A stretch of 32,000 nt of DNA from Opitutales bacterium (GTDB lineage: Bacteria > Verrucomicrobiota > Verrucomicrobiia > Opitutales > PNEW01), in NCBI GenBank assembly GCA_965219535.1, contig CBDCNV010000001.1, positions 870,001 to 902,000 of the forward strand. Reading direction: 5' to 3'. Within the stretch, counting starts at the first letter, position 1. Every line of letters starts with the position of its first letter. The notes under the pieces were generated by a model. It searched no databases, had not been told where the DNA came from, and saw nothing but the letters and a program-made list of their open reading frames with translations. The position numbers were made by a program, and so were the translations under genes. This document shows positions 21,218 to 28,938 of the stretch, piece by piece.

Positions 21218-21388
21218 CTCTTGTCATTGCGAAGGAGGCGTAGCCGACTGCGGCTACCGAGCGCAGCGACATCTTCCATTCCAGGGGAATGCCGGTCACG
21301 TATTGACATCCCCCTGGAATGGAAGATGTCGTCCTGCTGTTGCAGAACTCGGTAGCTTCGTCGCGTTGCTTCTCGCAATGACAATAAG
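21218..21388. mobile_element. Hairpin MITE (~171 bp) with TTGTCATTGCGA termini and a TACCGAG micro-element in each arm
   Basis: The left arm is CTCTTGTCATTGCGAAGG..GCGGC[TACCGAGCGCAGCGACATCTTCC]ATTCCAGGGG. The right arm is CCCCTGGAAT[GGAAGATGTCGTCCTGCTGTTGCAGAACTCGGTA]GCTTCG..TCGCAATGACAA. The micro-elements lie at 21255-21277 (+) and 21321-21354 (-). Confidence 0.75.
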
Positions 21389-28331: not shown

Positions 28332-28465
28332 GGGTCAAACGTAGAATTTAAATGTTATCGTAAGATGCCAAATTTCTAATCTTATGAAAATTCATCCATA
28401 CTCCATTGTTCATGATCCAAGGAATACTTGTCAGCTTATCAATGTTTAAATTCTACGTTTGACCC
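28332..28465. mobile_element. MITE-like element with perfect 21-bp terminal inverted repeats and 92-nt AT-rich spacer
   Basis: GGGTCAAACGTAGAATTTAAA lies at 28332-28352 and TTTAAATTCTACGTTTGACCC at 28445-28465. Confidence 0.75.
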
Positions 28466-28481
28466 TTTTACCTATTCTATT

Positions 28482-28597
28482 TCGATTTGCGATGAGGGAT
28501 GTCGGGCTGCGCCCTCGGTAGCCGATTTGCGATGAGGGATGTCCATCCGTCGCACGAGGCTATTGACGACAGGCGGGCTGCGCCCTCGGTAGCCGAT
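28482..28597. repeat. BIME-like mosaic: alternating modules CGATTTGCGATGAGGGATGTC (x2) and GGGCTGCGCCCTCGGTAGCCGATT (x2)
   Basis: The first module lies at 28482-28502 and 28523-28543. The second lies at 28503-28526 and 28574-28597. It contains a GGGC-tgc-GCCC mini-hairpin and the CTCGGTAGC word. Confidence 0.75.
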
Positions 28598-28702: not shown

Positions 28703-28938
28703 CTCTTGTCATTGCGAGGAGCAACGCGACGCGGCAATCCAGGCAAATAGTCACATTGCCTACGAATGCCAATCTCCGCTCAGATCTGTCGAATGAGGAT
28801 TCGTCTCTTCAATTAAGGTATTCGACCAGTTGAGAGTAAATCCTAATATCCAGGGACCTACATGATGCAGCAGAAATTCCCCTGGAATGGAAGATGTCGC
28901 TACGCTCGGTAGCCGCGCTTCGCTCGCAATGACAAGAG
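28703..28938. mobile_element. MITE (~236 bp) with perfect 16-bp terminal inverted repeats CTCTTGTCATTGCGAG; micro-element only in the right arm
   Basis: The TIRs lie at 28703-28718 and 28923-28938. The right arm reads CCCCTGGAAT[GGAAGATGTCGCTACGCTCGGTA]GCCGCGCTTCGCTCGCAATGACAAGAG, with the insert at 28889-28911. The left arm has GCGGCAATCCAGG at 28731-28743 with no insert. Confidence 0.8.

Follow-up and report, generated by a model that had tools for sequence, protein, structure and literature searches.

A small dispersed repeat at a fixed bond in one hairpin of a gene-less GIY-YIG element in an Opitutales genome: probable insertion into an ancestral empty site

How did one of two matching arms of a short palindromic element come to hold 23 nucleotides (nt) that the other lacks? 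The question is raised by a 236-bp element at positions 28703-28938 of a 32,000-nt stretch of an Opitutales metagenome-assembled genome (MAG), hereafter the window (G000:C1:870001-902000; G000 is the source assembly of 4.47 Mb, and C1 and C2 are its two contigs). A preliminary description made from the letters of the window alone had taken the locus for a MITE (miniature inverted-repeat transposable element) with an internal pair of a filled and an empty site, i.e., a true insertion of the 23-nt unit nested in a larger non-autonomous element. The analysis makes it probable that the element is a gene-less pair of hairpins, one of which received a separate small mobile repeat, with the empty state being ancestral. 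In many copies, one and the same site either holds the unit or lacks it, the empty state precedes the filled one, at least one gain is lineage-specific, and element and unit are distributed independently of each other.

The ends of the focal element form an inverted repeat of CTCTTGTCATTGCGAG that is perfect over 16 nt, as previously described (28703-28718 and 28923-28938, 100% identity), and this sequence had four matches in the window at up to two mismatches versus 0.02 expected. Read inward, the left arm is CTCTTGTCATTGCGAG-GAGCAACGCGACGCG-GC-AATCCAGG, while the reverse-complemented right arm reads CTCTTGTCATTGCGAG-CGAAGCGCG-GC[TACCGAGCGTAGCGACATCTTCC]ATTCCAGGGG, with the stretch after the unit beginning ATTCCAGG. 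The filled right arm (unit at 28889-28911) and the empty left arm (site at 28733-28743) were thus recovered where they had been placed. The likeness of the left arm, on which the proposed pair depends, also held in a MAFFT alignment of the two focal arms with four other arms, persisting on both sides of the insert. The triplet after the focal unit is ATT and that of the empty site is AAT, so that the arms differ here by 23 nt plus one substitution; the inner module between terminus and GC differs as well, with 15 nt versus 9 nt. The unit recurs in the window at 21255-21277 with one mismatch (chance expectation 0.00), and the focal unit agrees with its consensus at 23 of 23 positions compared to approximately 76% for the element.

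A census of the family was carried out in G000 by searching its conserved terminal core TTGTCATTGCGAG with up to three mismatches, which recovered 53 paired elements with lengths of 73-435 bp. At its simplest the element is a palindrome of approximately 111-116 bp, elements of 134-143 bp carry one unit, those of 167-170 bp carry a unit in both arms, and forms of 200-435 bp contain added central sequence. Size classes of 115, 138, and 170 bp in one repeat family can therefore reflect nested mini-insertions instead of separate families. The copies were not uniformly filled, with a majority of 110 arms being empty and 55 filled, and all filled arms agreed in the bond occupied by the unit and in its orientation. 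Among the 43 pairs scored on both sides, 15 were empty/empty (E/E), 16 empty/filled (E/F), 4 filled/empty (F/E), and 8 filled/filled (F/F); the focal copy is one of the 20 one-armed elements. Filled arms occurred in all six inner-module subtypes (filled/empty: A, 18/35; B, 12/18; C, 3/24; D, 10/7; E, 4/11; F, 4/5) and contained approximately 29 distinct cores, including CGCAGC (19 times), CGTAGC (7 times), and several hairpin cores of 10 and 17 nt. In the one-armed elements, the right-hand arm, whose unit reads GGAAG... on the plus strand, was favored 16:4. On both contigs the plus strand is the one richer in G, and this bias is suggestive only as the copies are not independent.

The base-level rule of insertion required correction. 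The target had been given as C-A-AT with one A replaced, which is imprecise: the unit enters at GC^AATCC, and an A-to-T change mostly goes with it. Three of the 55 filled arms are clean, among them the polarized gain described below, and have GC directly before the unit and AATCC directly after it. The triplet following the unit was ATT in 40 and ACT in 8 of the 55 filled arms, even where the empty arms of the same subtype read GAT. The common ATT may have come in with the inserted segment or may stem from a single event that spread with the element or by conversion.

The direction of change was read from orthologous loci in G000 and G001, a genome of the same genus, by flank queries and fetched regions, with G003 from another genus of the same family as outgroup. 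At C2:459887-460182, the two congeneric genomes are nearly identical across the element. Its right arm in G000 reads CCTGGATT[GGAAGATGTCGTCCCGCAGTTGCTGGACTCGGTA]GCTTCG with a 34-nt unit (C2:460107-460140), the same arm in G001 reads CCTGGATT-A-CTTCG, and that in G003 is canonical empty (GGATTGCTTCG/CCTGGATTGCTTCG). By parsimony, the G000 lineage gained 34 nt here without duplicating or losing any target bases, and together with the census this gain supports the earlier proposal of a true insertion nested in a larger element as well as the insertion reading of the focal pair. The left arm of this locus is filled in all three genomes, with a core of GGGCTATAGCCC (a 12-nt palindrome) in G000 and G001 versus a 17-nt hairpin in G003 (L141 ~1501-1640; G000 C2:459887-459960). 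At C2:591416-591820, G000 has a 27-nt unit with AT instead of TT and G001 has the canonical empty site; polarity is less certain in this case, as a G000 paralog is also filled. A third locus, C2:1297724-1297890 (G001:4367579-4367743), is filled in both genomes, and one of its arms has a core of 10 nt in G001 versus 6 nt in G000. The core is a third layer that changes independently.

Three further orthologous elements had unchanged arms. One of these loci (G001:1144150-1144800, L134, versus G000 C1:46649-46700) nevertheless differs outside the arms by a 48-nt insert in G001 within an AATCGAC-repeat flank; the insert carries the unit variant TACCGAGAGCAAAGCTCGACATCCCTCA and constitutes a further presence/absence difference. 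In total, 3 of 12 orthologous arms differed in unit state with flanks that were mostly 93-99% identical, and the unit layer therefore evolves rapidly between such close genomes. Sampling from the other side, 400 kb of G001 held 16 paired elements, and for three of these both flanks had a match in G000, two being elements common to both genomes and the third a locus that is empty in G000. The low number is due to the flanks themselves being repeats.

The unit has the form T|GGAAGATGTC-core-CTCGGTA| with constant ends and a variable core of 6, 10, or 17 nt, giving lengths of 23, 27, or 34 nt. The core is usually a mini-hairpin, with 6 nt being the minimum. Outside the arms, the unit was found in at least six other host sequences in G000, including GGGTTCA heptamer arrays (35 copies), IS3 transposase genes (3 copies), and four further repeat contexts. 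The bases past CTCGGTA vary with the host (GC, CA, GT, CT, or CG), which places the GTAG seen in the MITE context outside the unit. The exact pattern occurred 85 times in G000 (approximately 162 copies when near-exact matches are included), 67 times in G001, 44 times in G003, and six times in each of two other genomes; it was absent from 36 other genomes searched within the order, and a reversed-pattern control returned no match.

The arms have a far wider range. The exact arm pattern TTGTCATTGCGAG-N(8-26)-GCAATCCAGG was present in more than 119 genome stretches from many phyla, of which 80 loci were fetched and examined (L015-L094). Hosts included Alpha-, Beta-, and Gammaproteobacteria, Patescibacteria, Omnitrophota, Spirochaetota, Planctomycetota, Nitrospina, Acidimicrobiia, and two Opitutales MAGs. 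Among the 80 fetched loci, units were found only in those from two Opitutales assemblies and all others were empty. The unit is confined to one Opitutales family and is a local addition to a widespread and ancient arm, and these differing distributions give host element and unit independent histories. The 23 specified bases of the arm are exactly conserved in at least nine phyla or classes, mostly as palindromes of 85-100 bp, and such identity at the DNA level across phyla implies horizontal spread.

The nature of the host element was indicated by a single copy outside the window, C2:2214190-2214624 (435 bp), which is the only one in the family with an intact GIY-YIG open reading frame (ORF; C2:2214275-2214565, 97 codons) and has both arms empty. 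PF01541 (GIY-YIG) was the sole Pfam domain of the 97-aa product (E 5.5e-11), its best match in the PDB was 1zg2, a minimal GIY-YIG protein of the UPF0213 type, and an NCBIfam search assigned no specific family. This copy is likely the autonomous or master form, and tblastn with its protein found no further intact gene copy in G000. The last 12-20 codons of the gene are kept in approximately ten long elements by tblastn. In the focal element, the last 18 codons survive with 72% identity to the intact copy over residues 80-97, and translation of 28816-28763 on the minus strand gives LIEETNPHSTDLSGDWHS followed by a stop. Retention of these 3' codons identifies the focal element as an internal-deletion derivative of a hairpin-gene-hairpin unit. 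The hairpin repeats flank the intact gene on both sides and recur without it, with at least 165 arms in G000, and a GIY-YIG gene between the same arms was also found in a Thiobacillus MAG (L091:2980-3367) and in G001. The label MITE is apt as regards terminal inverted repeats, small size, and many copies, but not as regards descent from a transposase, a GIY-YIG gene remnant lying inside instead. No direct repeat indicating a target duplication was visible at the ends of family copies and no transposase partner with the same ends was found, the sole partner with these ends encoding the GIY-YIG protein. On these sequence features, the element is treated as an inverted pair of NTS/SRM-like hairpins, a putative gene-less derivative of the small GIY-YIG unit.

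The hairpin names are those of the Ssn proteins, single-domain GIY-YIG proteins of approximately 94 aa that act as site-specific nucleases on single-stranded DNA (ssDNA) (Chenal et al., 2025, PMC11893778). According to that report, each Ssn binds an oriented hairpin repeat termed NTS or SRM (CGTCATTCCCGCGMAVGCGGGAATCYRG for the NTS of Neisseria), with the cut falling a few nucleotides upstream of this hairpin. Among the bases, the C that follows the palindrome matters most for binding, and the NTS-ssnA-NTS architecture resembles an insertion sequence (PMC11893778). The host element shares with this system the NTS-ssnA-NTS layout, a single-domain GIY-YIG protein of ~94-97 aa, arms with an upstream GTC, a palindrome, and C-YRG, and hundreds of scattered hairpins without a gene. 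It differs in that the arms read TTGC and not TTCC, have a much longer interior, and form inverted pairs with conserved outer ends as in MITEs. The element is therefore likened to an SRM pair by architecture and by gene and repeat sequence, and is treated as working like one with no claim to strict family membership. The sections of that report consulted describe no second small repeat inserted in a hairpin stem (PMC11893778), and a literature search for GIY-YIG genes linked to MITEs or palindromic elements returned no description besides that study.

The proposed course of events begins with a host unit in which the gene for a 97-residue, single-domain putative GIY-YIG nuclease would lie between two inverted hairpins (GTC-ATTGC...GCAAT-C-CAGG). 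The hairpin upstream of what is now the gene remnant would then have received a dispersed repeat of 23-34 nt with the ends GGAAGATGTC and CTCGGTA. Entry would take place at one fixed phosphodiester bond in the 3' half of the hairpin stem (GC^AATCC) and in one orientation, with no target-site duplication and 0-2 target bases changed, the empty arm representing the ancestral and the filled arm the derived state. The hosts of the unit are hairpin-forming or tandem repeats, and from the lack of duplication, the fixed orientation, and the hairpin-forming repeat targets we infer that it moves by a strand-specific reaction directed by a hairpin or by ssDNA. The rule of fixed bond, fixed orientation, and no duplication is hereby explicit and points to enzymes and substrates.

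Insertion splits the basal ATT/AAT pairs from the rest of the hairpin and displaces the C after the palindrome. The relaxed hairpin grammar HGTC-AT[TC]GC..GC[AG]AT-YYRG was matched by 92 of 110 empty arms and was kept by none of the 55 filled arms. With the basal stem removed and the flanking C displaced, filled arms probably no longer function as nuclease recognition sites, as judged from their sequence. A bolder version casts the unit as a hyperparasite living on the Ssn system, an NTS-like mini-hairpin that is mobilized, or admitted at nicks, by an Ssn-type nuclease and specifically destroys the recognition hairpins of the resident GIY-YIG element. This is doubtful, and would if true provide the first mechanistic handle on the movement of very small repeats and a case of two selfish DNA layers in conflict.

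Several results weigh against the reading of a hairpin pair that received a mobile repeat. None of the 110 empty arms matched the strict SRM sequence HGTCWYN(0-2)YYVSBRHN(0-5)WNVSBRGN(0-2)RNCYNB. Fold energies of empty and filled arms were no better than those of shuffled sequences, and hairpin disruption consequently rests on sequence logic. The ATT shared by so many filled arms could signify identity by descent or gene conversion from arm to arm. Strand counts were mixed, with 35:23 for units in the MITE context and an opposite bias of 10:25 in the heptamer context; the arm and strand biases may be a replication-strand effect, the copies again not being independent. A check of the Y1 genes and the paralogous GIY-YIG genes in G000 found no cognate enzyme for the unit. 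With regard to the focal copy itself, its two collinear paralogs C2:1291710 and C2:388291 (~75% identical) are also E/F and the former shares the focal core GCTACG, so that the focal element may have inherited its filled arm from a one-armed parent instead of being hit directly. No ortholog of the focal element was found in G001, G002, or G003, where the locus is present and the element absent, and the spacer there has diverged too far for an empty site to be defined.

In the nearest rival account, the same arms arise with no transposition at all: template switching or gene conversion would shuffle the unit, a modular segment, among hairpin repeats, replication would stall at one hairpin and resume on a similar one elsewhere, and the resulting states would spread by recombination between copies. 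Such shuffling would explain why ATT adjoins the unit regardless of whether the empty arm has AAT or GAT, why arms are mosaics of exchangeable inner modules, why the TCCCGC..GCGGGA hairpin is found among the modules of arms and also among the cores of units, and why orthologous arms can differ in their cores. The unit also opens with a 7-nt word, TACCGAG, resembling the target AATCCAG, with which MAFFT aligned it, and the filled arm at C2:591416 has a filled paralog with the same downstream sequence. The explanation is nevertheless unlikely, given that among the arms of G000 none is an identical donor for the 34-nt unit gained at C2:460107-460140, that units reside in hosts non-homologous to the arms (heptamer arrays and IS3 genes) and each of these needs a non-homologous entry, and that site and orientation are invariant to the base.

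Secondary loss was the other history considered for the focal pair, with the unit being ancestral in both arms and deleted precisely from the left one. The non-canonical empty site of G001, GGATT-A-CTTCG, can be read as an excision footprint and loss is conceivable at C2:591416, but two thirds of all arms are empty with one canonical sequence, the gene-bearing master copy, all fetched arms from outside the Opitutales, and the outgroup G003 at the polarized locus are empty too, and a return from ATT to AAT would need an exact reversion; precise deletion is thus very improbable. Even less credible is the view of the filled arm as a variant with a function and not as selfish DNA, for instance as an alternative module for protein or nuclease binding that was selected in place. 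Its attraction lies in unit ends far better conserved than the center of the element and in the unit's own grammar of GTC, hairpin, and then C, which recalls the NTS. It has to contend with units that interrupt IS3 transposase genes and simple tandem arrays, with the lack of any recurring gene or regulatory context, and with a distribution that is family-restricted and copy-number-like.

If the insertion reading is followed, the closest known kind of unit appears to be the small dispersed repeats (SDRs) of cyanobacteria. Elhai and colleagues reportedly described SDR1-8 in 2008 from Nostoc punctiforme and other heterocystous cyanobacteria as sequences of ~21-27 nt, some of them hairpins, with many dispersed copies, and these are said to nest in MITEs and in heptamer tandem repeats, the two host types encountered here. 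To our knowledge, mobile DNA of 20-30 bases has been convincingly described essentially in heterocystous cyanobacteria alone, and we know of no one who has established how it moves. The Opitutales unit resembles SDRs in its length of 23-34 nt, many dispersed copies, precise entry into other repeats with matching empty sites, and lack of a known enzyme. It differs in its host (Verrucomicrobiota, Opitutales), variable-length core, and Ssn-related hairpin target, and the likeness is one of description. SDR5 inserts between the third and fourth base of HIP1 (PMC4390886), and the function of SDRs was still unknown in 2026 (PMC13756078).

The unit accordingly represents an independent case of 20-30-base mobile DNA in a phylum other than the cyanobacteria. 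New relative to both the SDR and the Ssn systems are the phylum, a unit family with a variable core, and an Ssn-type hairpin target with a polarized orthologous gain. Advantages over the cyanobacterial case include a base-precise target, many internal empty/filled controls, the polarized gain, and a target hairpin belonging to a recently characterized nuclease class. Nested MITEs such as Nezha and Chunjie of cyanobacteria and the Correia elements are similar as non-autonomous, intergenic inverted-repeat elements carrying another repeat. They are set apart from the present case by its partner gene of the GIY-YIG nuclease type, the absence of a definable target duplication, and a nested element of just 23-34 nt.

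Repetitive extragenic palindromes (REP/REPIN-RAYT) and IS200/IS605 elements offer a further comparison, with short hairpin repeats, oriented insertion with no target duplication, and Y1 genes present in the genome; a GGTAG word, seen at one unit end in the MITE context, also recalls REP. The G of GTAG is however part of the target, other hosts reading GGTACA, GGTAGT, or GGTACG, the sole strong Y1 gene has a different REP family and no unit nearby, and the strand bias is inconsistent. As a candidate mobilizer of the unit, Y1/RAYT was rejected: there were four hits, the best being flanked by a different REP family with no unit within 1.5 kb, and just the weakest of the four had a unit within that distance, one copy of a variant. 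The RAYT-like Y1 gene G000:C2:935819-936163 lies between members of a REP family of its own (GCACCCAACGGGTGCA... and CCAGAGGTGTAGCGAAGCGAAATCTCTGG), which is unrelated to the unit. The paralogous GIY-YIG genes at C1:399322-399925 and C1:1631211 were likewise rejected as its nuclease, with one unit 270 bp away and no flanking pattern. The first of these loci comprises two tandem copies of another GIY-YIG gene, ~38% identical to the master, each preceding a duplicated tRNA 3' fragment with an intact tRNA gene adjoining, and looks like repeated insertion at a tRNA.

Table 1. Features of the focal element and of a second family copy in the window.
Feature	Coordinates	Strand	Remarks
Left terminal inverted repeat CTCTTGTCATTGCGAG	28703..28718	+	16 nt, 100% inverted-repeat identity
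Family-wide conserved terminal core TTGTCATTGCGAG	28706-28718	+	Within left terminal repeat
Right terminal inverted repeat	28923..28938	-	Partner of 28703-28718
Left arm, empty NTS/SRM-like hairpin T-GTC-ATTGC-[GAGGAGCAACGCGACGCG]-GCAAT-C-CAGG	28705..28743	+	Downstream of gene remnant
Right arm, filled hairpin T-GTC-ATTGC-[GAGCGAAGCGCG]-GC-[unit]-ATT-C-CAGG	28883..28936	-	Upstream of gene remnant; basal ATT/AAT pairing lost
Vacant insertion point, GGC^AATCCAGG	28735..28736, between C28735 and A28736	+	Empty site spans 28733-28743
23-nt unit	28889..28911	-	Arm orientation TACCGAGCGTAGCGACATCTTCC; plus strand GGAAGATGTCGCTACGCTCGGTA; core GCTACG
Decayed GIY-YIG (ssn-like) gene 3' end, LIEETNPHSTDLSGDWHS + stop	28760..28816	-	tblastn and translation
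Second family copy, 170 bp, unit in both arms	21218..21387	+	Left core CGCAGC; right 17-nt hairpin core

Searching the window against Rfam gave no family at the gathering threshold. In a permissive scan, a neighboring unrelated MITE at 28332-28465 matched Wolbachia sRNA 46 with 21.3 bits compared to a gathering score of 65.3, a match that is probably meaningless. Just upstream of the focal element, at 28482-28597, a mosaic of GATT-type modules holds two copies of the unit variant GGGATGTCGGGCTGCGCCCTCGGTAGCCGATT, which are separated by 71 nt and carry the same CTCGGTAGC end; this mosaic may be the source context of the MITE-arm subtype.

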